Source: Burkholderiales bacterium (GTDB lineage: Bacteria; Pseudomonadota; Gammaproteobacteria; Burkholderiales; SG8-41). Taken from it: a stretch of 64,000 bases of DNA. The stretch spans positions 858-64,857 of the forward strand of contig JBBQAO010000011.1 of assembly GCA_038316355.1 (NCBI GenBank). Reading direction: 5' to 3'. The notes beneath the pieces were generated by a model. It saw only the letters and a program-made list of their open reading frames with translations, ran no database searches and was not told the DNA's origin. Both the position numbers and the translations under genes were made by a program. Positions 24,826 through 46,407 of this stretch are shown here, piece after piece. Each line of letters opens with the position of its first letter. Position 1 is the first letter of the stretch.

Positions 24826-24831
24826 AGCACC

Positions 24832-25292: not shown

Positions 25293-25306
25293 TTGACTGC
25301 GGTCAA
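25293..25306. promoter_or_regulatory. FixK/Fnr-type palindrome TTGACTGCGGTCAA upstream of sucC
   Basis: Perfect inverted half-sites TTGAC/GTCAA. It lies 23 bp upstream of TAGATT (25330-25335), which is class II activator geometry. Confidence 0.45.
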
Positions 25307-25337
25307 GGCTGGCGTTACAGCCGCTGTAATAGATTTG

Positions 25338-25367
25338 GCGTCCCTGCGGAACCGGGACGCTTTTTTT
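25338..25367 (+). terminator. Intrinsic terminator 30 nt before the sucC start
   Basis: GCGTCCC-tgcggaacc-GGGACGC followed by TTTTTTT. Confidence 0.65.
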
Positions 25368-25396
25368 AACGAGCGCATTTGACGCGGATCAGAATA

Positions 25397-26566
25397 ATGA
25401 AAATTCACGAGTACCAGGCCAAAGAACTGCTGCGCAAATACGGCGTGCCCACGCCGCGCGGCATCCCCTGCTTCAGCGTTGACGAAGCCGTCAGCGCCGC
25501 CGCCAAACTCGGCGGCAGCGTGTGGGTCGTCAAGGCGCAGATCCATGCCGGCGGTCGCGGCAAGGGCGGTGGTGTCAAAGTCGCCAAGTCGCCGGCTGAG
25601 GTGAAAACCTATGCCAGCAGCATCCTCGGCATGCAGCTGAAGACTCACCAGACCGGCCCCGAAGGACAGAAGGTGCGGCGGCTGCTGATCGAAGAAGGCG
25701 CCGACATCAAGAAGGAACTGTATGTCGGCATGGTGATCGACCGCGGCACGCAGCGCGTGGTGCTGATGGCCTCCAGCGAAGGCGGCATGGACATCGAGGA
25801 AGTGGCAGCGCATACCCCGGAAAAAATCCACAAGATCGCGATTGACCCGGTGAAAGGGCTGACCGATGGCGACGCCGATGCGGTGGCGGGCAAGATCGGC
25901 GTCCCGGCGGCGTCAGTGCCGCAGGCGCGCGCGTTGCTGCAGGCTTTATACAAGGCGTTCGACGAAACCGATGCCTCGCTGGCCGAAATCAATCCGCTGA
26001 TCCTCACCGGCGACGGCAAGGTGATCGCGCTGGATGCCAAGATCGATTTCGACGGCAACGCGCTGTTTCGCCATCCCGACCTGGTCGCGTTGCGCGACCT
26101 CGATGAAGAGGATCCCGCGGAAGTCGAGGCCTCCAAACACGATCTTAATTACATCCAGCTCGACGGCAACATCGGCTGCCTGGTCAACGGCGCCGGCCTC
26201 GCGATGGCGTCGATGGACATCATCAAGCTCTACGGCGGCAGTCCCGCCAACTTCCTCGACGTCGGCGGCAGCGCCACCGCGGAGAAAGTCACCGAAGCGT
26301 TCAAGATCATGCTGCGCAACCCGCAGCTGAAAGCGATCCTGGTGAACATTTTCGGTGGAATCATGAAGTGCGATGTCATCGCGCAGGGCGTGGTGGCTGC
26401 GGCGCGGCAGGTCAGCCTCAGCGTGCCGCTGGTGGTGCGCCTCGAAGGCACCAACGTCGATCTCGGCAAGAAAATCCTCGCCGAATCCGGGTTGCCGATC
26501 ATTTCCGCGAACAACATGGCTGATGCCGCGCTGAAAGTCGTTGCTGCAGCGAAGGGGAAGAACTGA
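25397..26566 (+). CDS. sucC: Succinyl-CoA ligase (ADP-forming) beta subunit
   Basis: [63 protein letters not shown]. Confidence 0.95.
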
Positions 26567-27450
26567 TGTCCATCCTGATCAATAAAAACTCCCGGGTCAT
26601 GACCCAGGGCATCACCGGCAAGACGGGGATGTTTCATACCAAGACCGGCAAGGAATACGCCAACGGCAAAAATTGTTATGTCGCCGGTGTGACGCCGAAA
26701 AAGGGCGGCCAGAGTTACGAAGGCATTCCGATTTTCAATTCGGTGCGCGAAGCGAAAGATGCGACCGGCGCGAATGTTTCGGTGATCTACGTGCCGCCGC
26801 CCTATGCCGCCGCGGCGATCGAGGAGGCGGTGGATGCGCAACTGGAACTGGTGATCTGCATTACCGAAGGCATTCCGGTGCGCGACATGGTCCGTCTCAA
26901 ATACAAGATGGAGCAACAGTGCAGCAAGACGCTGCTGATCGGCCCCAACTGCCCTGGCGTGATCACGCCCGACGAAATCAAGATCGGCATCATGCCCGGC
27001 CATATCCATAAAAAAGGCCCGATCGGCGTGGTGTCGCGCTCTGGCACACTGACCTATGAAGCGGTCGGCCAGTTGATGGAAATCGGCCTCGGCCAGTCGT
27101 CCTGCGTCGGTATCGGCGGCGACCCGGTGAATGGCTTAAAGCACATCGATGTGATGAAAATGTTCAACGATGATCCGCAGACGGAAGCGGTGATCATGGT
27201 CGGCGAAATAGGCGGCTCGAACGAGGAAGAGTGCGCGCGCTGGATCAAGACCAATATGAAAAAACCCGTGGTCGGTTTCATCGCCGGCGTGACGGCCCCC
27301 CCGGGCAAACGCATGGGCCATGCCGGCGCGATTATTTCCGGCGGCAAGGGCACTGCGGAAGAAAAACTTGCGGTGATGGAAGAGTGTGGCATCAAGACCA
27401 CCAAGAATCCCGCCGAAATGGGCAGGTTGTTGCAGTCGGTGCTTAAATAA
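26566..27450 (+). CDS. sucD: Succinyl-CoA ligase alpha subunit
   Basis: [31 protein letters not shown], and the phosphohistidine loop [14 protein letters not shown]. Start overlaps the sucC stop. Confidence 0.95.
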
Positions 27451-27524
27451 ATCCGGTGTTGTAAGCAGGAGCTACGGCGGATGTCGGCGCGATAAACGAT
27501 AGAGATAAGTGAGGAGCAGAGATT

Positions 27525-29222
27525 TTGGAAGGTGGCATCGTGAAGCGCGGCAAACGTAACCGTGGGTCCCTCAGGGGACGCGCGGTGGATACGCGTGCGT
27601 TGACGCAAGTGCAGGCCTTGCTGGCAGAAGCGCAGCACGAGACCGGCGTCGAGCCGCGGCGCCGCGACCTGCTGATCGAAAATCTGCACCGCATCCAGGA
27701 TCGCTACGGCCACATTGCCGCTGCGCACATCGTCGCACTGGCGCGTGAAATGAAGCTGGCGATGACCGAGGTTTATGAAGTTGCCACCTTCTATCACCAC
27801 TTTGATGTGGTGAAGGAAGGCGATAAAGCGCCGCCGGCATTGACGGTGCGCGTCTGTGATTCGTTGTCCTGCGAGCTGTCCGGCGCAGGCGCGTTGATGA
27901 CCGGTCTGAAAAAAGCGCTGGGTGATGGCGTGCGCGTGATCCCGGCGCCCTGCGTCGGTCGCTGCGAGCAGGCACCGGTGGCGGTGGTCGGGCAGAATCC
28001 GGTGGCGCAGGCCACTGTTGATAAAGTCAAAACGCTGGTGGCTGCGAAAAAGACGCATTGTGCTGTCGGCAAGTACGTGGCGTATGCCGAGTATCGCAAG
28101 CAGGGCGGTTACACCATCCCGGCGGAATGCCTGGCCGGCAAACGCGATGCGGAAACCCTGATCAAGACCATGGAAAATTCCAGCCTGCGCGGTTTGGGCG
28201 GCGCGGGTTTTCCGACGGGGCGCAAATGGCGCATTGTGCGTGGCGAAAAGGGCCCGCGCGTGATGGCGATCAACATCGACGAGGGCGAACCCGGCACGTT
28301 CAAGGATCGCCATTATCTGGAAACCGATCCGCATCGTTTTCTCGAAGGTATGCTGATTGCGGCATGGACCGTACAGGTGTCCGAGGTCTATATCTACCTG
28401 CGCGATGAGTACGCCGGTGTGCGCGCCATTTTCAAAAAAGAAATCAAGGCGCTGCAGGCCGATCCGCCGTGCCCGCTGCCGCCGATATTCCTGCGTCGTG
28501 GTGCCGGCGCCTATATCTGCGGTGAAGAATCCGCGATGATCGAATCCATCGAAGGCAAACGCGGCATGCCGCGGTTGCGACCGCCGTACGTGGCACAGGT
28601 CGGTTTGTTCGGTTACCCGACGCTCGAACACAACATGGAAACCCTGCACTGGGTGCGCGAAATCCTCGAAAAAGGTGCCGACTGGTTTGCCGGTCATGGC
28701 CGTAACGGTCGCAAGGGGCTGCGTTCGTTTTCGGTATCGGGTCGTGTGCAGAAGCCTGGCGTACATCTCGCGCCGGCGGGCATCACCGTTAAAGAGCTGA
28801 TTGCCGAGTATTGCGGCGGCATGTTGCCGGGACACGAGTTTTACGGCTATCTGCCGGGCGGGGCATCCGGCGGCATCCTGCCGGCGTCGTTGGGGGATGT
28901 GCCGCTGGATTTCGACACGCTGCATCCCCACGGCTCATTTATCGGTTCCGCGGCGGTAATTATTTTGTCGGATCAGGACAAGGCCAGCGGTGCTGCGCGC
29001 AACATCATGAAATTTTTCGCCGAGGAATCCTGCGGCCAGTGCACGCCCTGCCGTGTTGGCACCGCGAAGGCGCTGCAATTGATGGAGTCGCCGAGCTGGG
29101 ATCAGGGACTGCTCGAAGAACTGTCGGCGGCGATGGCCGATGCCTCGATCTGCGGCCTGGGCCAGGCGGCGCCCAATCCGATCCGCACGGTAATGAAATA
29201 TTTTTCCAAGGAAATTCTGTGA
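27525..29222 (+). CDS. NAD-dependent formate dehydrogenase, fused gamma-beta (NuoE-like plus NuoF-like) subunit
   Basis: The N-terminal NuoE-like part (VATFYHHF..VRVCDSLSC..APCVGRCEQAP) is fused to a NuoF-like part (GLGGAGFPTGRKW, YICGEESAMIESIEGKRG, ESCGQCTPCRVG). The start (TTG) is uncertain. Confidence 0.85.
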   Translation: MEGGIVKRGKRNRGSLRGRAVDTRALTQVQALLAEAQHETGVEPRRRDLLIENLHRIQDRYGHIAAAHIVALAREMKLAMTEVYEVATFYHHFDVVKEGDKAPPALTVRVCDSLSCELSGAGALMTGLKKALGDGVRVIPAPCVGRCEQAPVAVVGQNPVAQATVDKVKTLVAAKKTHCAVGKYVAYAEYRKQGGYTIPAECLAGKRDAETLIKTMENSSLRGLGGAGFPTGRKWRIVRGEKGPRVMAINIDEGEPGTFKDRHYLETDPHRFLEGMLIAAWTVQVSEVYIYLRDEYAGVRAIFKKEIKALQADPPCPLPPIFLRRGAGAYICGEESAMIESIEGKRGMPRLRPPYVAQVGLFGYPTLEHNMETLHWVREILEKGADWFAGHGRNGRKGLRSFSVSGRVQKPGVHLAPAGITVKELIAEYCGGMLPGHEFYGYLPGGASGGILPASLGDVPLDFDTLHPHGSFIGSAAVIILSDQDKASGAARNIMKFFAEESCGQCTPCRVGTAKALQLMESPSWDQGLLEELSAAMADASICGLGQAAPNPIRTVMKYFSKEIL

Positions 29223-29300
29223 AGGCGTGAATGAGTGAAGGCGTGAACGGGGTGCCCCTTTCACACCTTTACGTCTTCACTCCTTCACCGGGAGTAATCC

Positions 29301-32111
29301 ATGACTGCGATGAACAAGGACGAACTGGCGGCAATGCCGGTCGAATTCAAGCTGAATGGCAGGGATGTCGTCGGCTACGCGTCGGAGACGATCATCCAGA
29401 CCGCGAAGCGCCACGGCGTCGAGATTCCGCACCTCTGCTACAAGGATGGCATGCGGCCCGACGGCAACTGCCGTGCCTGCGTGGTCGAGGTCAAGGGAGA
29501 GCGGGTGCTGGCCGCATCCTGCTGTCGCAAGCCGTCAGCGGGCATGGAAGTCATCACCGACAATGCGCGCGCGCTGGCGTCGCAAAAAATGGTCATGGAG
29601 CTGCTGCTTTCCGACATGCCGGAAAAACGCCATACCCGCAATTCCGAGCTCGACCAATGGGTGGCCAAACTCAAGGTCGGCAAGCCGCGTTTCAAGGCGC
29701 GCCACCAGCCACAGGCCGATGTGTCGCATTACGGCATCGCGGTGAATCTCGATTCCTGCATCCAGTGCACGCGCTGTGTGCGCGCCTGCCGTGAGGAACA
29801 GGTCAACGATGTCATCGGTTACGCCTTCCGTGGCGAACATTCGTCCATCGTGTTCGATCTCGGTGACCCGATGGGGGAGTCGACCTGTGTCGCCTGCGGC
29901 GAATGTGTGCAGGCCTGCCCGACCGGCGCGCTGATGCCGGCGCGGGAGGCGGGATTGGTCAAACCCGACAAGCAGGTGCACTCGGTGTGTCCGTATTGCG
30001 GCGTCGGTTGCCAGTTGACCTACAACATCAAGGATAACAAGATCATCTCCGTCGATGGTCGCGACGGGCCGTCGAATCACGAGCGGCTATGCGTCAAGGG
30101 GCGATACGGATTCGACTATGTACATCACAAGCAGCGCCTGACCAAACCGCTGATCCGCAAGCCGGGCGCCCCCAAACACGCCGACTTCACGATGGACCCG
30201 GCGAATCCGCTGGAGTATTTCCGCGAAGCGAGTTGGGAAGAGGCGCTGGACCTGGCGGCGGGCAAGCTGCGCGCGATTCGCGATCAGAGCGGCAACAAAG
30301 GGCTGGCCGGCTTCGGTTCGGCGAAAGGCAGCAACGAGGAAGCCTATCTGTTCCAGAAACTGGTACGTACGGGTTTTGGCTCAAATAACGTCGATCACTG
30401 CACGCGCCTGTGCCATGCCTCGAGCGTGGCGGCGCTGATGGAGGCGGTGAATTCCGGCGCGGTGTCGAACCAGGTCAGTGATGTGGCGAATGCTGAAGTT
30501 ATTTTCCTGATCGGCGCCAACCCGACCTCCAACCATCCGGTGGCGGCGACCTGGATCAAGAATGCGATTAAAAACGGCGCCAAGCTGATTTATGCCGATC
30601 CGCGGCGCTCTGATCTGTCGCGCCATGCCGCGTATTCGCTGCAGTTCAAGGCCGACACCGACGTCGCGCTGCTGAACGCGATGATGCACGTCATCGTCCA
30701 CGAAGGTCTGGTCGACGAAGACTTCATCAAGTCGCGCACCATCGGGTACGAGGACCTGAAGAAAAACGTCGAGGGCTACAGCCCCGAAGCGATGGCGCCG
30801 GTGTGCGGCATCCCCGCTGAGACCATCAGGGAAGTGGCGCGGGTTTACGCGACCTCCAAAAGTTCGATGATTCTGTGGGGTATGGGCATCTCTCAACACA
30901 TCCACGGCACCGACAATGCGCGCTGCCTGATCGCCTTGTGCCTGATGACCGGTCAGATCGGCCGCCCCGGCACGGGATTACATCCGCTGCGCGGCCAGAA
31001 CAACGTGCAGGGCGCGTCCGACTCGGGCCTGATCCCGATGGTGTTCCCGGATTACCAGCGTGTCGACAATCCGCAGGCGCTGGCGCGGTTCGAGAAGCTG
31101 TGGGGCATGAAACTCGATCCCAAGCCCGGCCTGACGGTGGTTGAAATCATCCACGCGACTTTGAAGGGCGAGATCCGCGGCATGTATGTGATGGGCGAAA
31201 ACCCGGCGATGTCGGATCCCGATGCACACCATGCGCGCGAAGCGCTGGCGAAACTCGACTGCCTGGTGGTGCAGGAAATTTTTCTCACCGAAACCTGTTA
31301 CTACGCCGATGTGATTTTTCCGGCGACGGCATGGCCGGAAAAAGACGGCACGGTGACCAACACCGATCGCATGGTGCAGATGGGTCGCAAGGCGCTGGAT
31401 GCGCCGGGTGAGGCAAAACCCGACCTGTGGATCATCCAGGAACTGGCGCGTCGCTTGGGGCTCGACTGGAATTACAACGGGCCGAAGGATGTGTTCAACG
31501 AAATGCGCCGCGCGATGAATTCGATCGCCGGCATCACCTGGGAGCGGCTGGAAGCTGAGAGCTGTGTCACCTATCCTTGTGAAGAAGAAGGTGATCCGGG
31601 GCAACCTATTGTTTTTATTGATAAATTTCCAACTGCTACAGGCAGGGCGAAGTTTGTGCCCGCCGACATCATTCCGGCCAACGAACGTCCGGATCGCGAG
31701 TTTCCGTTTGTGCTGATCACCGGTCGCCAGCTCGAACACTGGCATACCGGTGCGATGACGCGCCGCGCCGGCGTGCTCGATGCGATCGAGCCGGAACCGA
31801 CGGTGTCCATGCATCCGCTGGATCTTGATCAGATCGGTGCCCAGGGTGGCGATGTGATCACCGTCGAATCGCGGCGCGGCATCATTTCCCTGCACGCGCG
31901 GCCCGACGACGGCACACCACGCGGTGCTGTGTTCATCCCGTTCTGTTTTTACGAGGCGGCAGTGAACCTGTTGACTAATGCTGCGCTTGATCCGGTTGGC
32001 AAGATTCCGGAATTCAAATACTGCGCGGTGAAGGTGATGAAGGGCGGCGAACTGACACCGCGTTCCAGCTACGGCGGCGGGCAGATTCTGGCGCAACTGG
32101 CGAAAACATGA
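29301..32111 (+). CDS. fdsA: NAD-dependent formate dehydrogenase alpha (molybdopterin) subunit, Cys type
   Basis: N-terminal 2Fe-2S/4Fe-4S cysteine clusters (CYKDGMRPDGNCRACVVEV; CIQCTRCVRAC; CVACGECVQACP) and the MopB active-site region VDHCTRLCHASSV. No in-frame TGA. Confidence 0.9.
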   Translation: MTAMNKDELAAMPVEFKLNGRDVVGYASETIIQTAKRHGVEIPHLCYKDGMRPDGNCRACVVEVKGERVLAASCCRKPSAGMEVITDNARALASQKMVMELLLSDMPEKRHTRNSELDQWVAKLKVGKPRFKARHQPQADVSHYGIAVNLDSCIQCTRCVRACREEQVNDVIGYAFRGEHSSIVFDLGDPMGESTCVACGECVQACPTGALMPAREAGLVKPDKQVHSVCPYCGVGCQLTYNIKDNKIISVDGRDGPSNHERLCVKGRYGFDYVHHKQRLTKPLIRKPGAPKHADFTMDPANPLEYFREASWEEALDLAAGKLRAIRDQSGNKGLAGFGSAKGSNEEAYLFQKLVRTGFGSNNVDHCTRLCHASSVAALMEAVNSGAVSNQVSDVANAEVIFLIGANPTSNHPVAATWIKNAIKNGAKLIYADPRRSDLSRHAAYSLQFKADTDVALLNAMMHVIVHEGLVDEDFIKSRTIGYEDLKKNVEGYSPEAMAPVCGIPAETIREVARVYATSKSSMILWGMGISQHIHGTDNARCLIALCLMTGQIGRPGTGLHPLRGQNNVQGASDSGLIPMVFPDYQRVDNPQALARFEKLWGMKLDPKPGLTVVEIIHATLKGEIRGMYVMGENPAMSDPDAHHAREALAKLDCLVVQEIFLTETCYYADVIFPATAWPEKDGTVTNTDRMVQMGRKALDAPGEAKPDLWIIQELARRLGLDWNYNGPKDVFNEMRRAMNSIAGITWERLEAESCVTYPCEEEGDPGQPIVFIDKFPTATGRAKFVPADIIPANERPDREFPFVLITGRQLEHWHTGAMTRRAGVLDAIEPEPTVSMHPLDLDQIGAQGGDVITVESRRGIISLHARPDDGTPRGAVFIPFCFYEAAVNLLTNAALDPVGKIPEFKYCAVKVMKGGELTPRSSYGGGQILAQLAKT

Positions 32112-32229
32112 ATGTGGCATAAAAGCGGCGGCATAACAGCGACATAACAGCAACCGTTCGGAACTGCAGGCAAAAAAATACAGCCCGTCCCGCGGGCGTT
32201 CATCGGATTACGTTCAGAAGAGGAACAAT

Positions 32230-33906
32230 ATGGCACTGTCGGATATTGAAATTGCCCAAGCGGCGAAAATGGAGCGCATCGTCAAGATTGCGCAGAAGCT
32301 GGGCATTCCTGAAGAACATCTGGTGCCCTACGGTCATACCAAGGCCAAGGTGTCGTTGGAATATGTCGACAGCCTGAAAGACAGGAAAAACGGCAAACTG
32401 ATCCTGGTCACTGCCATCAGCCCGACGCCCGCCGGCGAAGGCAAGACCACGACCACCGTCGGCCTCGGCGATGCGCTGAACAAGATCGGCAAAAAGGCCA
32501 TCATCTGCCTGCGCGAGCCCTCCCTGGGTCCCGTGTTCGGCATGAAGGGCGGGGCTGCCGGCGGCGGTTATGCGCAGATCGTGCCGATGGAGGACATCAA
32601 CCTCCATTTCACCGGCGATTTCAATGCCATCGCGCTGGCCAATAACCTGCTGGCCGCAGCAATGGACAACCATATCCACCACGGCAACGAACTCGGTATC
32701 GACGTGCGCCGCATCACCTGGAAACGGGTGATGGACATGAACGACCGCGCGCTGCGCGACATCACGGTGTCGCTGGGCGGCCCGGGCAATGGTTATCCGC
32801 GCCAGGACGGCTTCGACATTGTCGTCGCTTCCGAAGTGATGGCGATTTTCTGTTTGGCGACTTCGCTGAAGGACCTGAAAACGCGGCTGGGCAACATCGT
32901 TGTCGCTTCCACCCGCGATCTGAAACCGGTACGCGCGAAAGACTTGAAGGTGCACGGCGCGATGACGGTGCTGCTGAAAGATGCGCTGGCGCCGAACCTG
33001 GTGCAGACGCTGGAGAACAACGCGGCGTTTGTGCATGGCGGCCCGTTTGCCAACATCGCCCACGGCTGCAACACCGTGATCGCCACCCAGACTGCACTGA
33101 AACTGGCCGATTATGTGGTGACTGAAGCCGGCTTCGGCGCCGACCTCGGCGCCGAGAAGTTTGTCGACATCAAGTGCCGCAAATCCGGCCTGCGGCCCGA
33201 TGCCTGCGTCATTGTCGCCACCATCCGCGCCTTGAAGTTCCACGGTGGTGTCGATGTCAGGGAACTCAACAAGGAAAACCTCGCGGCGCTGGAAAAAGGT
33301 GTGGCCAACCTCGAGCGCCATGTCAAAAATGTGCGCGAGAACTACGGCCTGAAATGCGTAGTGTCGATCAATCACTTCACCTTCGACACCGATGCCGAGA
33401 TCGAACTGCTGAAAAAGAAAATGGCGCCGCACAATGTGCCGGTGCTGCTGGCGCGGCACTGGGCAGATGGCGGCGCGGGCGCGACTGAAGTGGCGAAAAC
33501 CGTGGTCGAGCTGATCGACCAGGGTGAGAACCAGTTCAAATTCGTTTACGACGAGAAACTGCCGCTGTGGGACAAGATGAAAACCATCGCCACCAAGATT
33601 TACGGCGCTGCTGACATTTCCGCCGACAACAAGGTGCGCGGCCAGATCAAGAAACTGCAGGAAGACGGTTACGGCGACTACCCGGTGTGCGTGGCCAAGA
33701 CGCAGTACTCGTTCTCGACAGACCCCGGGCTGCGCGGCGCGCCCTCGGGACATATGGTTAACATCCGCGAGGTACGATTGTCGGCCGGTGCCGAGTTCGT
33801 GGTGATGGTCTGCGGCGATGTCATGACCATGCCCGGCCTGCCGAAAATCGCTTCGGCGGAAAAAATTGATCTGACCGACGAAGGCAAGGTCGTCGGATTG
33901 TTCTGA
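32230..33906 (+). CDS. fhs: Formate--tetrahydrofolate ligase
   Basis: [40 protein letters not shown], and a C-terminal DEGKVVGLF. Confidence 0.95.
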
Positions 33907-35693: not shown

Positions 35694-35731
35694 CCGACGT
35701 TTTTCGATAATTCACCAGAAGAGATAATCCC

Positions 35732-37048
35732 ATGGATGCAATGCAATGGCTGACACTGATCGTGTTTGCCCTGACGATCGTGGTGGTGATCACCAATGTG
35801 ATTGACGCCACGCTGGCGGCGCTGATCGGCGTCGGCGCGATGTGCTGGCTCGGCATCATGACCGAGGCCGAGGCTTTCAAATACGTCGACTGGAACGTGA
35901 TGGCGATCCTGCTCGGCATCTGGATCATCGCCGGACATTTCGGCAAATCCGGGGTGCCGAGCTGGCTGTCGATACAGGCGCTGAAATTGTCGGGAGGCCG
36001 CCCCGGTTTTCTGGTGATGATCCTGACCTTTCTTGCCGGTGTGATTTCGATGTTTGTCGACAACGTGGTGACCATCCTGATGATGGCGCCGGTGGCGCTG
36101 CCGCTGGCGCGGGCGCTGAAGCTGTCACCGGTGCCGGTGATCCTGATGATCGGTTTCGGCGCCAATTTCATGGGCACCGCTCTGCTGATCGGTGACCTGC
36201 CACCGCAGATGCTGCACAGCGTCGCCGGCGCCGAGTTCTGGGATTTTTTCTGGCAACACGGGCGTGCATCTTCGTTTCCGATCCTGATGGTGACCTTTGT
36301 GATCACCCTTGCCGTGATGTGGGCCTACGGTTTCCGCGGCCATAAACGCGTCGCCGACCTGAACAGCCTTGGCCTTACGGCCAGGATCGAAAACCCGCTG
36401 TTTGCGGGCATCGTCGTGGTCTGGTTCATCGGCACCGTGGTGGCGATGTCGATGCGTGAATATATCGGCGTTCAGCTCGGTTTTATTTCGATGACCGGCG
36501 CGATCACGCTGGTGCTGGTGCTGGCGTTGCTCGGTGACCGTGTCAAACAGGCCGACAGTTTCGAGGAAAGCATGCAGGAACTGGACTGGCGGGCGATATT
36601 CTTCTATGTCGCGCTGTTTGCGCTGGTCGGCGGACTTGAAAAGAGCCATATCCTTGACCTGTTGGCCAATCAGATCAAACCGATTTTCCTCGAAAACTAT
36701 GCGCTGGGCGCGACGCTGCTGTACTGGGTCACCGTGCCCATCGTCGGCATCGTCGAACACGACGCCTATATCCTGACCTTCCTGCGCACCATCAAGGACT
36801 TGGGGGAGTCGGGGATCGAGCCGTGGCCGCTGTACTGGATGCTGCTATGGTCCGGCACGCTGGGCAGCAACCTGACGGTGGCCGGTGCACCGGCACTGTA
36901 TGTCGCGCTGAGTCTTGGCGAGAAGGAAGAGGGGCGCAAGGTGTCGTTGCGCGAGTTTCTGGCGTGGAGCATACCCTTCACGCTGGTTTGTTCGGTGATC
37001 TGTTATATCCTCGGCATGCTGATCTGGGTGCTGCCGTACGCAAAATGA
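35732..37048 (+). CDS. ArsB/NhaD-superfamily anion permease (CitMHS/SLC13-like)
   Basis: 438-aa polytopic protein with FVDNVVTILMMAPV and GSNLTVAGAPA re-entrant-loop-like motifs. Confidence 0.65.
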   Translation: MDAMQWLTLIVFALTIVVVITNVIDATLAALIGVGAMCWLGIMTEAEAFKYVDWNVMAILLGIWIIAGHFGKSGVPSWLSIQALKLSGGRPGFLVMILTFLAGVISMFVDNVVTILMMAPVALPLARALKLSPVPVILMIGFGANFMGTALLIGDLPPQMLHSVAGAEFWDFFWQHGRASSFPILMVTFVITLAVMWAYGFRGHKRVADLNSLGLTARIENPLFAGIVVVWFIGTVVAMSMREYIGVQLGFISMTGAITLVLVLALLGDRVKQADSFEESMQELDWRAIFFYVALFALVGGLEKSHILDLLANQIKPIFLENYALGATLLYWVTVPIVGIVEHDAYILTFLRTIKDLGESGIEPWPLYWMLLWSGTLGSNLTVAGAPALYVALSLGEKEEGRKVSLREFLAWSIPFTLVCSVICYILGMLIWVLPYAK

Positions 37049-37082
37049 GGTCGTACGAAAATGAGAATTTACCCGAAACGAG

Positions 37083-37535
37083 GTGATGCAAATGTATAAA
37101 AACATAATGGTTCCCACCGACGGTTCCGCGCTGTCGCGTTCCGCGATTGCTGCCGCCATCAAGCTGGCCAAATCCACAGGTGCCAAAGTGACCGCGTTTT
37201 ACGCGGCGCCGCCGGCGACGCCGCTGGTTTACGGGGGGCTGCTGCCGGTCAGTTATGTCTCGCCTGGCGAACATTCGGCCATCATCAAAAAAGCGGCGGA
37301 GCGCTACCTCGGCGTCGCTGCAATGGCGGCGAAAGCCGCAGGCGTGAAATGCAAGCTGGCGCACGTGACCAGCGATTTCCCGGCGGAGGCGATCATCGCG
37401 GCGGCACGCAAGGAAAAGTGCGATCTGATTTTTATTTCATCCCACAGCCGCCGTGGCATTGCGCGCATGTTGCTGGGCAGCGAAACGCAGAAAGTCATCG
37501 CCAACGCGAAAATCCCGGTGCTGGTGCACCGTTAA
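37083..37535 (+). CDS. Universal stress protein (UspA family)
   Basis: YKNIMVPTDGSALS, and a C-terminal GSETQKVIANAKIPVLVHR. The exact start is ambiguous (GTG 37083, ATG 37086 or 37092). Confidence 0.85.
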   Translation: MMQMYKNIMVPTDGSALSRSAIAAAIKLAKSTGAKVTAFYAAPPATPLVYGGLLPVSYVSPGEHSAIIKKAAERYLGVAAMAAKAAGVKCKLAHVTSDFPAEAIIAAARKEKCDLIFISSHSRRGIARMLLGSETQKVIANAKIPVLVHR

Positions 37536-37756
37536 TTTCCCCGATATAGCGGCGGGATGGTCGGCCGATACTTTTAAGTAATTGTTTTTAAAGTATTTTT
37601 AGACATAAAGCGCGGTCGGCGTATGCTGGCCGCATCTGCCGCCCAGCGCCATCACGGGCCGCACCGACGCCGGGCCGGATGTTCAGCGTCAGTTAAGCGG
37701 ACGCACCCGGCGCAGCCCGTCGCGACACTCCTGACGGTGACGGATATACTCGAATC

Positions 37757-37770
37757 TTGATTTTGGTCAA
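37757..37770. promoter_or_regulatory. FixK/Fnr-type box TTGATTTTGGTCAA upstream of tctC
   Basis: Half-sites TTGAT/GTCAA. It lies 23 bp upstream of AAGAAT (37794-37799). Confidence 0.4.
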
Positions 37771-37890
37771 TTCTTTCCCGGCGACAAACGCGAAAGAATG
37801 GCTTCTACGACGTTCCAATAAGGTTGGGCTGCGGCAACTGCCGCAGATAAAAACTCAGCACCCGTCGTTCAATTGATAAGGAGGAGTCAC

Positions 37891-38901
37891 ATGGGTATTC
37901 AACGAGTATTCTCGCGCGGCCTGCTGCCGCTGGTCGCTGCATTCGGTCTCGCCGTATCCGGTACCGCCGCAGCCTGGGAACCGACCAAGTCTGTCGAGTT
38001 CATCATTCCCGCCGGCACCGGCGGCGGCGCTGACCAGATGGCGCGCCTGATTCAGGGCATCGTTGCCAAACACAAGCTGATGAAAGAGGCGCTGATTCCC
38101 GTCAACAAGTCAGGCGGCGCCGGTGCCGAAGGTTTCCTCGAGGTGAAAGCTGCGAAGGGCGACCCGCACAAGATCATCATCACTCTGTCAAACCTGTTCA
38201 CGACGCCGATGGCGACCGGTGTGCCTTTCAACTGGAAGGAACTGACGCCGGTCGCGATGCTGTCGCTGGACAACTTCGTGTTGTGGGTGAATTCCGAGAC
38301 GCCCTACAAAACACCCAAGGACTATCTGGATGCGGTGAAAAAGGGCGGCCCGAACACCTTCAAGATGGGCGGCACGGGCTCCAAGCAGGAAGACCAGATC
38401 ATCACCGTGGCGATCGAGAAGGCGGCCGGCATCAAATTCACCTACATTCCGTTCAAGGGCGGTGGCGCGGTGGCGACGCAACTGGTCGGCAAACATATCG
38501 ACTCGAGCGTCAACAATCCGATCGAGGCGGTGGCGCAATGGCGCGCCGGCGCGCTGCGCGCGTTGTGCGTGTTTGATGCCGAACGCATGCCGTACAAGGA
38601 AAAGGTCACCGCAACGCAGTCCTGGAACGACATCCCGACCTGCAAGGAAGCCGGCATCCCGATGGATTACGTGATGCTGCGCGGCATTTTCATGCCGGCC
38701 GGGGTATCGCCGGACGTGGTGGCTTTTTATGTCGACCTGTTCACCAAAGTGCGCGCGACTCCGGAATGGAAAAAATTCATGGAAGACGGCGCATTCAACC
38801 AGTCTTTCATGACCGGCAAGGCCTACTCAGACTGGGTGGCCAAGGCGGAATCGCTGCACCGCGACCTGATGAAGGAAGCCGGGTTCCTCGCCAAACCCTG
38901 A
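37891..38901 (+). CDS. tctC: Tripartite tricarboxylate transporter (TTT) substrate-binding protein
   Basis: Signal peptide, PTKSVEFIIPAGTGGGADQMARL, FKGGGAVATQLVGKHID. AAGGAGG Shine-Dalgarno 6 nt before the ATG at 37891. Confidence 0.85.
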   Translation: MGIQRVFSRGLLPLVAAFGLAVSGTAAAWEPTKSVEFIIPAGTGGGADQMARLIQGIVAKHKLMKEALIPVNKSGGAGAEGFLEVKAAKGDPHKIIITLSNLFTTPMATGVPFNWKELTPVAMLSLDNFVLWVNSETPYKTPKDYLDAVKKGGPNTFKMGGTGSKQEDQIITVAIEKAAGIKFTYIPFKGGGAVATQLVGKHIDSSVNNPIEAVAQWRAGALRALCVFDAERMPYKEKVTATQSWNDIPTCKEAGIPMDYVMLRGIFMPAGVSPDVVAFYVDLFTKVRATPEWKKFMEDGAFNQSFMTGKAYSDWVAKAESLHRDLMKEAGFLAKP

Positions 38902-39005
38902 TTGGCTGTGTTGTCCCGACGGGCCTCCCGGTCCGTCGGGTCGTTGCATCCCCCGGGGATGCGTCCGGTATTCAAGATTTTCCTTAAAGCGCTGGGTTGA
39001 ATTGC

Positions 39006-39530
39006 ATGGAAGACAAACAGGTTTCCGGTGAAGTGGTGTCCTCGGGCATCTCGGTACGGGCTGCAGAGATTGCCGTAGCCGTATTTCTGCTGATCCTCGG
39101 CGGGTTGGTCATGTACGACAGCGTCCGTCTGGGATTTCGCTGGGTGGGGGACGGCCCTGAGGCGGGTTATTTCCCGTTTTACATCGCCGTGTTCATCTGC
39201 GTCTCCAGCCTGGGTGTCCTGGGCCAGGTGTTCTTCGGCAAGGGGCGTGGCGTGCACAAGGTGTTCGTCGAGTGGGAGCAGTTGAAGCTGGTGCTGTCGG
39301 TGCTGATACCGGCCGCGGTTTTTGTATTCGGCATCCAGATGGTCGGCATTTATGTCGCGTCGGTGGCTTATATCGCGTTTTTCATGGTCTGGCTCGGCAA
39401 ATACACCTGGATCAAGAGCGTGGTGCTGGGCATCGCCGTCAGCGTCGCCACTTTCATGATGTTCGAAATATGGTTCAAGGTGCCGCTGTTCAAGGGTGCA
39501 TTCAATCCCCTCAGCATCTTCGGTTACTGA
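39006..39530 (+). CDS. tctB: TTT small membrane subunit
   Basis: A ~175-aa four-TM protein between tctC and tctA, with the GPEAGYFPFYIAV motif. Confidence 0.8.
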   Translation: MEDKQVSGEVVSSGISVRAAEIAVAVFLLILGGLVMYDSVRLGFRWVGDGPEAGYFPFYIAVFICVSSLGVLGQVFFGKGRGVHKVFVEWEQLKLVLSVLIPAAVFVFGIQMVGIYVASVAYIAFFMVWLGKYTWIKSVVLGIAVSVATFMMFEIWFKVPLFKGAFNPLSIFGY

Positions 39531-39557
39531 CCGCATTGATTTAGAGGAGCAGGCGAC

Positions 39558-41057
39558 TTGGAAGAAATCAACGCCCTATTTCACGGGTTCTCCGTTGCGC
39601 TGACGCCGTTCAACCTGATGTTGATGGTGATCGGGGTCGTATTGGGCGTGCTGATTGGCGTGCTGCCCGGCCTTGGCGGCGCCAACGGCATCGCGATCCT
39701 GCTGCCGCTGACGTTCACGATGCCGCCGACCTCTGCGGTGATCATGCTGTCATGCATTTACTGGGGCGCGCTGTTCGGTGGCGCGATCACCTCCATCCTG
39801 TTCAACATTCCGGGCGAGCCATGGTCGGTGGCGACCACCTTCGACGGTTACCCGATGGCGCAGCAGGGCAAGGCGGGCGAGGCGTTGACCACGGCGTTTA
39901 CGTCTTCCTTTATCGGTGCGTTTTTTGCGGTGGTGATGATCACTTTCCTCGCGCCACTGGTGGCCAAATTTGCATTGAAATTCGGACCACCGGAGTTCTT
40001 TTCGGTGTTTTTCCTGACCTTCTGCAGTTTCATCGGCATGGGCAAGGAACCGCCGTTCAAGATTGTCGCGGCAATGATGCTTGGCTTCGCGCTGGCCGCG
40101 GTGGGCATCGACACAGTGACTGGGCAACTGCGGCTGATCTTCGGCTGGCATGAGCTGATGCGCGGCTTTGACTTCCTGATCGCGGTGATTGGTCTTTTCG
40201 GCATCGGCGAGATCCTGCTGTCGATGGAGGAAGGCCTGTCGTTCCAGGGGCGCACTGCGAAAATCAACATGCGCATCGTCATCGAAACCTGGAAAAAGCT
40301 GCCGAAGTACTGGCTGACCTCGCTGCGCAGCTGCATCATCGGCTGCTGGATGGGCATCACGCCGGGCGGCGCCACGCCGGCCTCGTTCATGAGTTACGGT
40401 GTCGCCAAACGCATGTCTCCTGATGGTGCCAAATTCGGCACCGGCATGCCGGAAGGCATTGTCGCCCCTGAAACTGCGGCGCATGCGGCCGGCACGGCGG
40501 CATTGCTGCCGATGCTGTCGCTGGGCATCCCGGGTTCGCCCACTGCCGCGGTGCTGCTGGGCGGCCTGCTGATCTGGGGCCTGCAGCCGGGGCCGCTGCT
40601 GTTTGTCGAGCAGAAGGATTTTGTCTGGGGCCTGATTGCCAGCATGTACCTGGGCAACATCGTTGGCCTGATCATCGTGCTGACTTGTGTGCCGCTGTTC
40701 GCTGCAATCCTGCGTATCCCGTTCTCGATCGTGGCGCCGGTGATCATCGTGATCTGCGCCATCGGCGCTTTCACGGTGAACAACGCGATGCTGGACATCT
40801 GGTTCATGCTGCTGTTCGGTGTCATGGGTTACGCTTTCAAGAAACTGTCCTACCCGCTGGCACCGCTGGTGCTGGCCCTGGTGCTGGGCGACCAGGCCGA
40901 GGATGCTTTCCGTCAGTCGATGCTGATTTCGCAGGGTGACGTGCGGGTGTTTTTCTCCAACGGGCTGGTTGGCAGCATCATGGGTCTGGGACTGCTGATG
41001 CTGGTGTGGCCGCTGATCGGCAAGCTGAAGGCTGCATTGCGCAACAGCGCAGCCTGA
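39558..41057 (+). CDS. tctA: TTT large permease subunit
   Basis: 499-aa protein. GVLPGLGGANGIAILLPLTF and GCWMGITPGGATPASFMSY are typical of TctA. TTG start after GAGGAG. Confidence 0.9.
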   Translation: MEEINALFHGFSVALTPFNLMLMVIGVVLGVLIGVLPGLGGANGIAILLPLTFTMPPTSAVIMLSCIYWGALFGGAITSILFNIPGEPWSVATTFDGYPMAQQGKAGEALTTAFTSSFIGAFFAVVMITFLAPLVAKFALKFGPPEFFSVFFLTFCSFIGMGKEPPFKIVAAMMLGFALAAVGIDTVTGQLRLIFGWHELMRGFDFLIAVIGLFGIGEILLSMEEGLSFQGRTAKINMRIVIETWKKLPKYWLTSLRSCIIGCWMGITPGGATPASFMSYGVAKRMSPDGAKFGTGMPEGIVAPETAAHAAGTAALLPMLSLGIPGSPTAAVLLGGLLIWGLQPGPLLFVEQKDFVWGLIASMYLGNIVGLIIVLTCVPLFAAILRIPFSIVAPVIIVICAIGAFTVNNAMLDIWFMLLFGVMGYAFKKLSYPLAPLVLALVLGDQAEDAFRQSMLISQGDVRVFFSNGLVGSIMGLGLLMLVWPLIGKLKAALRNSAA

Positions 41058-41107
41058 TCACCGCAGGATCGGGTGCCGGATTCAAACCGGGGTTGTCGGA
41101 CTTGCGC

Positions 41108-41150
41108 AAAAAACCCGGCTCAGGCGAATATCGCCTGAGCCGGGTTTTTT
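41108..41150. terminator. Bidirectional intrinsic terminator between tctA and oxc
   Basis: AAAAAA-CCCGGCTCAGGCG-aata-CGCCTGAGCCGGG-TTTTTT. Confidence 0.85.
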
Positions 41151-41187
41151 GTCGCCTTGCCCTGTAACTGCTGCCCGGCAGTCCAGC

Positions 41188-42924
41188 TTATTTCTTTTTT
41201 GCCGCCGTCGGATTCAGACTGGTGATGCGGCCGCTTTCAGTGCCGGCGGTTTCATCGATGACGGCATTGATCAGCGTCGGTTTGCGCGAACGCACGGCTT
41301 CTTCCACCGCGCGGCGCAATTCCGCCGGGGTCGTGGCATGCACGCCGACGCCGCCAAAGGCTTCCATCAGCTTGTCGTAGCGCGCGCCCTTGACGAACAC
41401 GGTGGGCGCCACATCGGGGCCGCCGGTCGGATTGACGTCAGTGCCCTTGTAAACGCCGTTGTTGTTCATGACCACCACGCACACCGGCAGGTTGTAGCGG
41501 CAGATGGTTTCGACTTCCATGCCGGAGAAACCGAAGGCGCTGTCGCCTTCCACCGCGATTACCGGCTGGCCGCTGACCACGGCTGCGGCGACGGCGAAGC
41601 CCATGCCGATGCCCATCACGCCCCAGGTGCCAACGTCAAGGCGTTTGCGCGGCTTGTACATGTCGACGATGCTGCGCGTGAAGTCCAGTGCGTTGGCGCC
41701 TTCGTTGACCAGCATCGCATCCGGGTTGGCCTTGATGATGTCGCGCATCACGTTCAGTGCGCTGTGGAAATTCATCGGCGAGGGATCCTTGGCCAGGGTC
41801 TCGGCCATTTTTGCGATGTTCCTGGTTTTGCGTTCGTCGATCGCACCCAGCCAATCCGCGGACGGTGCGGGCCAGCCACCCCCCGCAGCACTGATGCCGC
41901 CGAGCATGGCCGACACGCAGGAGCCGATGTCACCGACCACCGGCGCATCGATGCGCACATTGCTGTCCGCTTCCTGTGGCGAGATGTCGATCTGGATGAA
42001 CCTCTGTCCGCCCCAGTCCTTGTGCGACTTGCCGCCCCAGGTCTTGCCCTTGCCGTGCGACAGCAGCCAGTTCAGCCGCGCGCCGATCAGCAGCACCACG
42101 TCGGCTTCCGGCAGCACATAGGAGCGGGCGGCGGCCGCGGACTGTTTGTGGTCGTCCGGCAGCAGTCCCTTGGCCATCGACATCGGCAGATAGGGGATGC
42201 CGGTTTTTTCGATCAGAGTGCGGATGTCGGCGTCGGCCTGGGCATAAGCTGCGCCCTTGCCGAGCACGATCAACGGGCGTTTGGCGGTTTTCAGCAGCGT
42301 CAGCGCGCGTTGCACGGCGTCCGGGGCCGGGATCTGGCGCGGCGCCGGATCGACCACCTTGATCAGCGAGGCCTTGCCGGCCGCGGCGTCCATGCTTTGC
42401 GCGAACAGCTTTGCCGGCAAGTCAAGATAGACGCCGCCGGGGCGGCCGGAGACGGCGGCGCGAATGGCGCGCGCAATGCCGATACCGATGTCTTCGGCAT
42501 TGAGCACGCGGAAGGCGGCCTTGCACAGCGGTTTGGCGATGGCCAACTGGTCCATCTCCTCGTAGTCACCCTGTTGCAGATCGACGATCTCGCGCTCGCT
42601 GGAGCCGCTGATCAGGATCATCGGGAAGCAGTTGGTGGTGGCATTGGTCAGTGCATTCAGGCCGTTGAGGAAGCCGGGAGCGGACACGGTCAGGCAGATG
42701 CCGGGCTTTTGCGTCAGGAAGCCGGCGATGGCGGCGGCGTTGCCGGCGTTCTGTTCATGACGGAACGAAATCATGCGCATGCCCGCAGCCTGTATCTTGC
42801 GCGTGAGATCGGTGATCGGGATGCCGGGCAGACCGAAGATGGTGTCAATGCCGTTGAGTTTGAGGGCATCGATGACCAGATTGAAGCCGTCGGTCTGTTC
42901 TGGTGATTGTGTTTCAGTTGTCAT
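41188..42924 (-). CDS. oxc: Oxalyl-CoA decarboxylase (ThDP-dependent)
   Basis: 578 aa. [29 protein letters not shown], the ThDP motif [31 protein letters not shown], and pairing with frc. Confidence 0.95.
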
Positions 42925-43103
42925 GTTGAGAAGTCTCGTCTTCTTGCCGTCAGTTAAACAAGCGTTTTTCCGGGATATATCTGCCGCAGAATGTGGGCAA
43001 GGCCGGATCCAGGGTATCTCCTCGCTTCACGGCTGATCCAGGCCATCTAAATGTGGCCGTGATTTAACCGGTGGATCATAGGGGGAGGGGTATAAATGTA
43101 CTC

Positions 43104-43117
43104 TTGACCCCGGTCAA
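43104..43117. promoter_or_regulatory. FixK/Fnr-type palindrome TTGACCCCGGTCAA upstream of oxc
   Basis: Perfect half-sites. On the minus strand it lies 23 bp upstream of TATGAT (43080-43075). Confidence 0.5.
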
Positions 43118-43240
43118 TTTTCGCAACAGGACGGCCCAACCTACCTTTCCGCTTATGGGTAGCCGGATGCGGGGAATGGGTTGGATAATGGCGAGTATTG
43201 CGATGCATCAAATGCCCCGTGTTTTATACGGCCGGGCGCG

Positions 43241-43849
43241 CTAGATTTTGCCGCGCCGCTTCAAGCGGCTCAGCGTCTCCGGCGACAGGTTCAGGTACGA
43301 GGCCAGTTCTTTTTTCGGCAGGCGCTCGGCGAGCTCGATGTGTTTGCGCATGAAGCGCTGCACCCGTCCCGGCGCATTGAGCAGATGCAGGGTGATGGTG
43401 TGCGCCATGACTTCGCTCATCAGCTTCATCACTTCAAGTTCAAACTCGCTCTTGATTTTCGCGTGCCGTTCAAGGAACGCGGCCCACTGCAGCATCGACA
43501 GCTTGGCGGCGCGGACACGGGTGACCGCACGTATCGAATACGGCATGGGGGTCTTCAGGCGCCATGCCGCATAACTGGTGTCGATGTCGCTTTCGGCGGC
43601 AAAACGCAGAATCATTTCCTTGCCATGGGCATTGGACACGGTGCGTTTCAGAATGCCGTCGATGATGAAATACTGTTCCATGGCATGCGTGCCCTGGAGC
43701 TCCAGGGTTTCGCCCTTGGCATAGTCAGTAATCTCCAGCAGGGGCTCGAATTCGTTCCACTGCGCCACGCCGAGGTTTTGCAAAACCATGTTCTGGCGTA
43801 ATTGCAGGCGGATGATTTTGGACTGGGGGTGCAGCGCAAGCTGGGTCAT
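43241..43849 (-). CDS. Crp/Fnr-family transcriptional regulator (no Fe-S cysteine cluster)
   Basis: 202 aa with a cNMP-binding-like beta-roll (GETLELQGTHAMEQYFIIDGILK) and a C-terminal HTH with an E--SR recognition motif (LSPETLSRLKRRG). It lacks the N-terminal Cys cluster of FNR. Confidence 0.85.
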   Translation of the reverse strand: MTQLALHPQSKIIRLQLRQNMVLQNLGVAQWNEFEPLLEITDYAKGETLELQGTHAMEQYFIIDGILKRTVSNAHGKEMILRFAAESDIDTSYAAWRLKTPMPYSIRAVTRVRAAKLSMLQWAAFLERHAKIKSEFELEVMKLMSEVMAHTITLHLLNAPGRVQRFMRKHIELAERLPKKELASYLNLSPETLSRLKRRGKI

Positions 43850-43952
43850 GGTCGGTGAATTAAAGTGAAGATGCAGTGAGGGCGCAGCGCCGAGCAGGTG
43901 ATTGAATTTTATAACTATTTGTTTATTTTAAGTAAATGATTGAAATGGAATC

Positions 43953-43966
43953 TTGACTCCGGTCAA
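43953..43966. promoter_or_regulatory. FixK/Fnr-type palindrome TTGACTCCGGTCAA upstream of frc, in the divergent region shared with the regulator gene
   Basis: Perfect half-sites. It lies 22 bp upstream of TATAGT (43989-43994), which places the box centre near -41.5. Confidence 0.5.
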
Positions 43967-45398: not shown

Positions 45399-45451
45399 CT
45401 TCCCGGCAATAAGCGGCGGGTTAATTGCAGGGGATTTACAGAGGATTCAAC

Positions 45452-46384: not shown

Positions 46385-46407
46385 TCGGCGCCGCCTTCAG
46401 GGCAAGG

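Follow-up and report, generated by a model that had tools for sequence, protein, structure and literature searches.

Within a 64,000-nucleotide stretch of a Burkholderiales genome (contig JBBQAO010000011.1 of assembly GCA_038316355.1, positions 858 to 64,857; hereafter the window), genes for the uptake and decarboxylation of oxalate and for the disposal of formate are found together with the gene of a 202-residue regulator of the Crp/Fnr family. Four short palindromes, or boxes, in this cluster are probably the operators of this local regulator, which would use them for class II activation of four promoters. The same layout is present in about 80 related uncultured bacteria, and it is very likely that this is a real genetic switch for the use of oxalate, undescribed so far, which relies on a well-known mechanism. 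In the mechanism that we propose, a dimer of the regulator would bind each box through its FNR-type E--SR recognition helix. As the centre of the box is predicted at about -41.5 or -42.5, the dimer would take the place of the -35 element and recruit or activate the sigma-70 RNA polymerase in class II style. The regulon would comprise uptake by the tctCBA transporter, activation and decarboxylation of oxalate by the products of frc and oxc, and disposal of formate by an NAD-linked formate dehydrogenase (FDH) and a formate-tetrahydrofolate (THF) ligase, the last two being driven in this genome from the sucC promoter. A regulon of this composition (sucCD-fds-fhs, tctCBA, oxc and frc) was put forward in an initial annotation of the window, and every prediction of it that can be checked computationally held, including those on conservation and geometry.

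The four boxes (Table 1) were all retrieved, at the coordinates given by the initial annotation, with the pattern TTGAYNNNGGTCAA, as compared with 0.04 sites expected from dinucleotide-preserving shuffles of the window. The palindrome at 43104 scores on both strands and was counted as one site. The generic FNR pattern TTGAYNNNNRTCAA (TTGAY-N4-RTCAA) gave the same four sites and no others, with 0.22 expected and none of 100 shuffles reaching four. When up to two mismatches were allowed, no site of the window besides the four boxes had one mismatch or fewer. A weight matrix was built from 141 unique orthologous box sites, and its scores over the 64 kb are bimodal: the boxes score between 24.6 and 30.9, the next best site scores 5.6, and the best site of shuffled sequences averages 6.7. 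All four boxes are intergenic, and neither the mismatch scan nor the weight-matrix scan of the window revealed copies within or 3' of genes. Weaker boxes were sought in the window before fdsGB, fdsA, fhs, the genes for two CitMHS-type transporters and usp, and none was found; the intergenic region between fhs and the transporter genes contains nothing box-like. These scans of the full window agree with the earlier statement that no further copies were seen in the other intergenic regions that had been read. The flank said to be shared by the boxes, tcTTGAC...GGTCAA, is present at three of the four sites, where 'tc' precedes TTGA, whereas the sucC box has 'ta' instead. The extended consensus is (C/A)TTGAC C-nn-G GTCAA(G/T). 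Beyond the generic FNR core, the sites have a C at position 6, a G at position 9 and a C/A flank, never G/T, and the weight matrix favours C at positions 5 and 6.

With regard to the promoters, there is a -10-like hexamer 3' of each box, in the orientation of the gene that follows, and the spacings of 23, 23, 23 and 22 nt initially reported for sucC, tctC, oxc and frc can be read directly from the sequence. Taking the -10 hexamer as positions -12 to -7, the box centre is at -41.5 or -42.5 relative to the predicted start sites, which are near 25342 (sucC), 37806 (tctC), 43068 on the minus strand (oxc) and 44001 (frc). Orthologous promoters were aligned in register on the box and counted as unique sequences. 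The frc promoters exhibit TATAGT or TATATT in 46 out of 46 cases, at 22 nt (39) or 23 nt (7) from the box, and the oxc promoters exhibit TATGAT, TATATT, TATCAT or a similar TAnnnT at 22-23 nt in 68 out of 68. The -10 hexamer is also 22-23 nt from the box in all six fhs promoters. The tctC promoters exhibit AAGAAT at 23 nt in 19 out of 45 cases, and the others mostly nAnnnT (nATnAT) at 22 nt. In the sucC promoters of closer relatives, TAGATT is found at 22-23 nt, and GCTGTAATAGATT or TATAGATT is kept at this distance from the sucC box in six loci (L081-L085 and L091). The alignments thus comprise a conserved box, a poorly conserved spacer and then a sharply conserved -10 hexamer, so that the claimed class II spacing is borne out by the frc, oxc and fhs promoters. 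The distance between box and start codon is variable (about 70-236 nt), which ties the box to the -10 hexamer and not to translation. At none of these promoters is there a -35-like hexamer 16-18 nt 5' of the conserved -10, and a consensus scan for sigma-70 -35/-10 pairs found none at the four box promoters. The TTGAC half-site is 30-31 nt away from the -10 hexamer, a gap at which it cannot serve as a -35 element. Judged by these features, the box promoters have the anatomy of activator-dependent class II promoters.

Box 4 lies between the divergent regulator and frc genes, and the regulator gene has a putative promoter of its own. Its TTTACT-17-TAnAAT arrangement is kept on the regulator side of the common box in 46 loci with the gene order of the window, and the centre of box 4 would sit near -58.5 relative to it. 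A TAAAAT hexamer 22 nt from box 4 on the minus strand was considered as a sign of class II autoregulation and rejected as a conserved feature, since it is poorly kept: an nAnnnT hexamer is found on this side in only about 10 of 78 orthologous sequences, and just seven of these are TAnnnT. An Rfam scan of the whole window gave one tRNA only; in the long 5' leaders of frc, oxc and tctC, it detected neither a riboswitch nor a leader RNA.

Two regulator-specific peptide patterns identified relatives in 477 species-level genomes. The best 80 loci among them (L001-L080) encode regulators that are 77-98% identical to that of the window, and all come from metagenome-assembled genomes of uncultured Burkholderiales or Betaproteobacteria from lakes, groundwater and soil. 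The proteins of the window were mapped onto these loci, and exact boxes were counted within 350 bp upstream of the start codons. Two gene orders are observed. In order A, which is that of the window, a first box separates fmt-frc from the regulator gene (fmt-frc <- box -> reg), a second precedes oxc (box -> oxc) and a third precedes the transporter genes (tctABC <- box). In order B (L053-L080), oxc is part of the first operon (fmt-frc-oxc <- box -> reg), tctABC keeps its box (tctABC <- box), and there is often an extra box before fhs. An exact box is located upstream of oxc in all 66 loci with this gene. Near the regulator start, the box is exact in 78 of the 80 loci and reaches a weight-matrix score of at least 15 in all 80. 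For tctC, the count is 40 of 49, the nine misses including two unrelated paralogues and two near-matches. For frc, it is 44 of 64; of the 20 misses, 18 belong to order-B genomes, where an oxc-frc-fmt operon contains frc as an internal gene, so that every frc that heads an operon has a box upstream, two of these (in L043 and L050) being near-matches. At operon-internal gene starts (fmt, tctB, tctA, sucD, fdsA, usp and trB), a box was found in 0 of 262 cases. Altogether, the 80 loci (1.137 Mb) contain 182 boxes as against 1.5 in shuffles, and just four of them are away from the expected promoters, which is approximately the chance rate. The box also stays with its genes through rearrangement: both gene orders retain it, and separate fhs or fdsGB units have boxes of their own (L065, L067, L072, L077, L078, L080, L083, L085, L086 and L093). 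Its retention upstream of oxc, frc, tctC, fhs/fds and the fds-linked sucC across at least 80 genomes indicates that it is under selection.

The assignment of the boxes to the local regulator is inferred from several features, of which the adjacency of regulator gene and box in 80 out of 80 loci is one and the motif itself another. A further one is a more distant locus, L104 (7211-12048), whose regulator is 55% identical to that of the window and is encoded divergently from an operon comprising a frc-like CoA-transferase gene, sucC and sucD. Two boxes are found there, at 7866 and 7906, 40 bp apart, the proximal one being followed by TATGAT at 23 nt. There is no oxc nearby, and a leader of about 400 nt precedes the CoA-transferase gene, whose locus is noted among the box misses for frc. 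The cultured bacteria provide the converse case: the oxc loci of cultured Cupriavidus, Paraburkholderia, Azospirillum and Caballeronia, whose Oxc proteins are 72-77% identical, have neither the regulator nor the box. In Azospirillum, a GntR-family gene precedes oxc-fds, and in Paraburkholderia oxlT-oxc-frc occurs without a Crp/Fnr gene. A tblastn search of 72,556 plasmids and chromids with the regulator gave no close cultured relative, the best matches being at most 34% identical and from Bacteroidota and Clostridia. Besides L104, locus L119 and a Cupriavidus campinensis chromid (L161) also join frc-like genes to sucCD, a linkage that hints at a succinyl-CoA-dependent step.

The initial annotation had included sucCD in the regulon only as a possibility, and this can now be stated more firmly, as conservation of the sucC box is restricted to loci that join sucCD to the fds/fhs unit. 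A metagenome scan with SucC gave 80 loci that are 61-93% identical. Where fds directly follows sucCD, an exact box is present 50-110 bp upstream of sucC in nine out of nine loci, and it was also found in four further close relatives on short contigs. Overall, 13 of the 72 sucC loci are boxed. The box is absent from about 55 generic sucCD loci, and L106 is the sole boxed locus outside the close sucC group (at least 80% identity). The genes of the sucC-sucD-fdsGB-fdsA-fhs unit (25397-33906) are separated by gaps of 74-118 bp without a box and probably form one operon, and the sucC box is therefore the only candidate for placing fds and fhs under the control of the regulator. A signalling module of CHASE2-kinase, PP2C, FHA, sometimes CHASE2-cyclase, and phosphodiesterase genes directly follows sucCD in 16 of 26 generic betaproteobacterial loci (from L097-L153) without the oxalate block, while in the window and in most of the L001-L080 loci with enough flanking sequence it follows fmt. 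The block of about 19 kb from fdsGB to fmt (27451-46687) thus sits inside an older sucCD-module neighbourhood, and it looks as if the oxalate-formate block was inserted into this synteny and sucC gained its box along with it. We also considered that sucCD might be a specialised paralogue and dropped this idea, since the synteny with the signalling module suggests an ordinary orthologue.

Two hairpins are located close to the sucC promoter. One, at 25266-25288, abuts box 1. The other (25337-25367, plus strand; -14.1 kcal/mol, z=-2.3) has a G+C-rich stem of 8 bp with a U7 tract behind it; it starts 1 nt past the -10 hexamer, and the predicted start site is within its 5' arm. Its role could be that of a 5' stabiliser, an insulator or an attenuator. 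A conserved attenuator was rejected, because the two closest relatives (L081 and L082) also have a hairpin but no U-tract.

From its cyclic nucleotide monophosphate (cNMP)-type fold, dimerisation helix and helix-turn-helix (HTH), the regulator is assigned to the Crp/Fnr superfamily. Its only Pfam domain is the cNMP-binding beta-barrel PF00027 (E=2.4e-8, 34.3 bits against a cut-off of 27.5), and it falls into no specific NCBIfam family. A profile of 20 homologues was compared with solved structures and matched PDB 3DN7 (E=3.8e-11), CRP (about 1e-7) and Dnr (1.6e-6); these alignments reach the HTH, as 3DN7 covers regulator residues 34-199 and Dnr residues 15-199. In the hhalign comparison, Escherichia coli FNR aligned with regulator residues 26-198 (alignment columns 35-207; E=3.9e-5), HTH included. 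The segment KKELASYLNLSPETLSRLKRR aligns with the HTH of FNR, such that the recognition helix E190-T-L-S193-R194 corresponds to E209-T-I-S212-R213 of FNR, and E190, S193 and R194 are invariant in the 20 homologues. The ETLSR motif that had been noticed in the HTH is therefore at the expected place, and the reported lack of an FNR-type cysteine cluster extends to the whole protein, which has no cysteine among its 202 residues. In the AlphaFold2 (AF2) model, which is of moderate quality with an overall predicted local distance difference test score (pLDDT) of 68.9, beta strands occupy residues 38-117 (pLDDT 72-90) and helices residues 129-156, 161-168, 170-174, 178-184 and 189-197. Foldseek matched this model over its full length (about 200 columns) with Dnr, GlxR, the CRP of Mycobacterium tuberculosis, Clr and FNR, Dnr being the top fold match with 23% identity. 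The protein ends with ...SPETLSRLKRRGKI. Only eight residues follow the SR of its recognition helix, and it therefore lacks the beta-hairpin wing of CRP and FNR.

These features also limit what the regulator could sense. The alignment with FNR begins past the N-terminal cysteine cluster, FNR Cys122 corresponds to Tyr103, and a protein without cysteine cannot carry the [4Fe-4S] O2 sensor of FNR, in agreement with the earlier view that it is not of the O2/Fe-S type. The residues by which CRP contacts cyclic AMP (cAMP), namely G71, E72, R82 and S83, are T90, S91, M/I101 and P102 in the profile alignment. The helix P-E-T-L-S-R and the TTGAC-type sites also differ from the R-E--R helix and the TGTGA-N6-TCACA sites of CRP. 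On these grounds, we classify the regulator as neither an FNR sensu stricto nor a cAMP receptor. As both the Fe-S cluster and the contacts to the phosphate of cAMP are missing, some other signal should be sensed, and the most plausible candidates are metabolites of the pathway such as oxalate, oxalyl-CoA, formyl-CoA or formate. Among the homologues, the sensor-domain segment RFAAESDIDTSYAAWR varies hardly at all, which suggests a conserved pocket. That the cNMP-type domain of this short, wing-less and cysteine-free clade directly binds oxalate, an oxalate-derived CoA thioester or formate is possible, although we propose it only tentatively.

Several observations do not fit easily with activation by the local regulator. 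The Pfam model HTH_Crp_2 does not match the regulator, and its C-terminal HTH is modelled at low confidence (pLDDT 40-56). For tctC, the -10 hexamer (AAGAAT) is a weak one, and the box is absent from five of 47 orthologous loci. The hairpin and U7 tract described above lie between the sucC -10 hexamer and the ATG, and, if sucCD is the sole copy in the genome, a wholly activator-dependent promoter would be odd. In addition, the E--SR helix is common to all FNR-class proteins, so that the boxes could be bound by an FNR, Anr or Dnr paralogue in the same cell, and a site that overlaps the -35 position could in principle repress. The last two points lead to alternative explanations. It is conceivable that the boxes are the targets of a global FNR, Anr or Dnr homologue that is encoded elsewhere and senses O2, NO or redox state. 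The oxalate and formate genes would then be members of an anaerobic regulon, with the local protein secondary or competing. The core TTGAY-N4-RTCAA is indeed the generic FNR-class box, the E--SR helix does not discriminate between paralogues, Dnr is the top structural match, some homologues bear the automatic JGI name 'dissimilatory nitrate respiration regulator', and our view is limited to 64 kb of the genome. Nevertheless, we consider this explanation unlikely, because the regulator gene adjoins a box through rearrangements and down to 55% identity, cultured Burkholderiales without this regulator have no box at their oxalate loci, and the sites share the additional C, G and C/A flank. Furthermore, there are no denitrification or anaerobic genes in the window or beside the boxes, and boxes outside the promoters of the regulon occur at the chance rate. 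Repression, in which the regulator would occupy the -35 region until an inducer frees it, would account for the overlap with the -35 position, from which some Crp/Fnr proteins do repress. However, there is no -35-like hexamer at the usual distance from the -10, so the promoters should be weak without an activator; the strict phasing of 22-23 nt in more than 120 promoters is a signature of class II activation that repression does not need, and the tandem sites of L104 resemble combined class II and class I activator arrangements. A repressor is therefore very unlikely.

Activation by the local regulator could also take place without a pathway metabolite, which would alter the effector only. The protein could be ligandless and governed by its own expression level like FixK, sense heme or NO like Dnr, or bind a cNMP made by the CHASE2 cyclase encoded at 51004-53235, about 5 kb beyond frc-fmt. 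The effector cannot be read from the sequence, FixK-type proteins also have no cysteine cluster, and the regulator gene has a conserved -35/-10-like promoter of its own beside a box. With regard to a cNMP, the sensor domain has the appropriate fold, and most loci have genes for a cyclase and a class-II phosphodiesterase-like protein after the cluster. However, the four cAMP-contact residues of CRP are replaced by T, S, M/I and P, and the signalling module is also found directly after sucCD in the 16 of 26 genomes without the oxalate block, so that the adjacency of the cyclase reflects ancestral synteny and not a functional link. Control by the neighbouring CHASE2 cyclase was rejected on these two grounds. 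The near-invariance of RFAAESDIDTSYAAWR argues against control without a pathway metabolite, as does the general experience that regulators within catabolic clusters usually sense a compound of the pathway. Overall, an effector outside the pathway, or none, appears somewhat unlikely. Lastly, the boxes could be chance palindromes, repetitive extragenic elements or plain -35 hexamers (TTGACn), given that TTGACT and TTGACC resemble the sigma-70 consensus TTGACA. This is refuted, and its residual probability is negligible, since the shuffles and the 182 orthologous boxes exclude chance, there are no copies inside or after genes, and the fixed geometry places the half-site far outside the 16-19 nt of a -35 element.

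Among known systems, we regard CprK and its dehalobox in Desulfitobacterium as the closest functional analogy to the regulator and boxes described here. CprK is a Crp/Fnr protein encoded inside a catabolic cluster; it activates a number of promoters nearby from a 14-bp palindrome in class II position (TTAAT-N4-ATTAA) and is switched on by a compound of the pathway, o-chlorophenol acetate, and not by O2 or cAMP. The box, effector, phylum and pathway are different. The class II promoters of E. coli FNR, Anr and FnrL have in common with ours the TTGAY-N4-RTCAA core and the E--SR helix, and their box near -41.5, in place of the -35 element, corresponds to the predicted position of ours. In contrast to FNR, the regulator described here has no N-terminal cysteine cluster, has Tyr103 in place of Cys122, and is only 202 residues long, ending eight residues past SR without the C-terminal wing. 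Its putative box favours C at positions 5 and 6, and its regulon would be a local catabolic pathway, whereas that of FNR is global anaerobiosis. FixK and FixK2 of rhizobia are FNR-class proteins without a cysteine cluster that perform class II activation from boxes like TTGA(T/C)C-N2-GATCAA; the absence of the cluster and the C at position 6 are shared with the regulator described here. FixK is under the control of FixLJ and of oxidation and proteolysis, governs genes of microoxic respiration and has a full-length C-terminal domain. The best solved-structure match, PDB 3DN7, is a 'cyclic nucleotide binding regulatory protein' of Cytophaga hutchinsonii from structural genomics. It has the same short architecture (194 residues), and the alignment extends to within three residues of both C-termini. 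Its helix is E-Y-L-S-E instead of E-T-L-S-R, and the identity is about 20-25%. Of Dnr and NnrR, which sense NO through heme and act on nir, nor and nos, Dnr is the one matched in fold, at only 23% identity, and denitrification genes were found neither in the window nor beside the boxes. The frc and oxc genes of E. coli are under the acid-stress control of EvgAS. This system, the GntR-family gene of Azospirillum and the effect of pH concern the same target genes through unrelated mechanisms.

A 2024 review describes the regulation of frc and oxc as 'understudied' and cites only effects of pH, frc/oxc expression being pH-dependent in lactobacilli and bifidobacteria (PMC13409138). In the open-access literature, where absence is not proof, we found no Crp/Fnr-type or other dedicated oxalate-responsive bacterial regulator; this search turned up nothing comparable to the regulon, in line with the initial remark that a Crp/Fnr-type oxalate regulon is not known to have been described. 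The advance consists of a new regulon and a new subfamily, as class II activation by an FNR-class dimer is textbook knowledge and not a new principle. The model specifies a protein, an operator of 14-16 bp, four promoters with predicted start sites and a regulon that would extend from uptake to formate disposal. It also indicates what one branch of the numerous short Crp/Fnr proteins that lack annotation probably does. In soils and fresh waters, a large flux of carbon runs through oxalate by way of the oxalate-carbonate pathway, and the regulator would, if the model is right, control oxalotrophy in widespread uncultured freshwater and soil Burkholderiales, with relatives in the 477 genomes. 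Should it directly bind oxalate, a CoA thioester or formate, it would be the first dedicated oxalate-sensing transcription activator and would add a new class of effectors to the superfamily. If the effector is oxalate or its CoA ester, the regulator and its box could serve as an oxalate biosensor.

Table 1. Genes, boxes and promoter elements of the oxalate-formate cluster, with positions in the window.
Feature	Position	Strand	Basis or remark
Box 1, TTGACTGCGGTCAA	25293-25306	+	upstream of sucCD-fdsGB-fdsA-fhs; exact match; weight-matrix score 24.6
-10-like hexamer TAGATT	25330-25335	+	23 nt after box 1, sucC promoter
sucC	25397-26566	+	NCBIfam
sucD	26566-27450	+	NCBIfam
Fused FDH gamma/beta subunit (fdsGB)	27525-29222	+	NCBIfam
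FDH alpha (fdsA)	29301-32111	+	NCBIfam
fhs	32230-33906	+	NCBIfam
Two CitMHS/ArsB-type (IT-superfamily) anion transporters and Usp protein	34296-37535	+	after fhs, no own box
Box 2, TTGATTTTGGTCAA	37757-37770	+	upstream of tctCBA; exact match; weight-matrix score 24.9
-10-like hexamer AAGAAT	37794-37799	+	23 nt after box 2, tctC promoter
tctC	37891-38901	+	Pfam TctC
tctB	38997-39530	+	Pfam TctB
tctA	39558-41057	+	Pfam TctA
oxc, oxalyl-CoA decarboxylase	41188-42924	-	NCBIfam NF006721, 999 bits
-10-like hexamer TATGAT	43075-43080	-	23 nt after box 3, oxc promoter
Box 3, TTGACCGGGGTCAA, perfect palindrome	43104-43117	-	upstream of oxc; exact match; weight-matrix score 30.9
Crp/Fnr-family regulator, 202 aa	43241-43849	-	Pfam cNMP_binding
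Putative promoter of regulator gene	43908-43936	-	TTTACT (43931-43936), 17-nt spacer, TATAAA (43908-43913)
Box 4, TTGACTCCGGTCAA	43953-43966	+	between divergent regulator and frc genes; exact match; weight-matrix score 27.8
-10-like hexamer TATAGT	43989-43994	+	22 nt after box 4, frc promoter
frc, formyl-CoA transferase	44130-45398	+	NCBIfam and Pfam
Fmt-like formyltransferase, 319 aa	45425-46384	+	NCBIfam and Pfam (Formyl_trans_N and Formyl_trans_C)

The tctCBA genes (37891-41057) encode a tripartite tricarboxylate-type transporter; in either gene order, they are syntenic with the regulator gene. Between the convergent tctA and oxc, at 41113-41145, there are paired terminator-like hairpins with T-runs on both strands, which fits separate transcription units for these two genes. 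The pair of frc and fmt is kept in about 58 loci, with no box between them, and the Fmt-like formyltransferase could connect formyl-CoA or formate to the 10-formyl-THF pool. No second transcription factor was found inside the oxalate-formate cluster among the annotated genes of the window. Beyond the cluster, the window is ordinary chromosome, with tsaD, dnaG, rpoD and xerD-like genes, and contains the signalling module, in this case with Ser/Thr-kinase, PP2C, FHA, cyclase and phosphodiesterase genes.

The diaphorase subunit of the FDH is a single NuoE-NuoF fusion of 565 residues. The same fusion is encoded on plasmid p4 of Azospirillum brasilense (L163, 7821-9551), beside oxc and behind the GntR-family gene. 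The two CitMHS/ArsB-type transporters and the Usp protein recur in many loci, where they are sometimes inverted beside the tctC box (L015, L039 and L050). Upstream of box 1, an open reading frame of 166 codons (24608-25108, plus strand) has no family match and contains a strong terminator-like hairpin followed by T7 at 24897-24927; it is probably not a gene.

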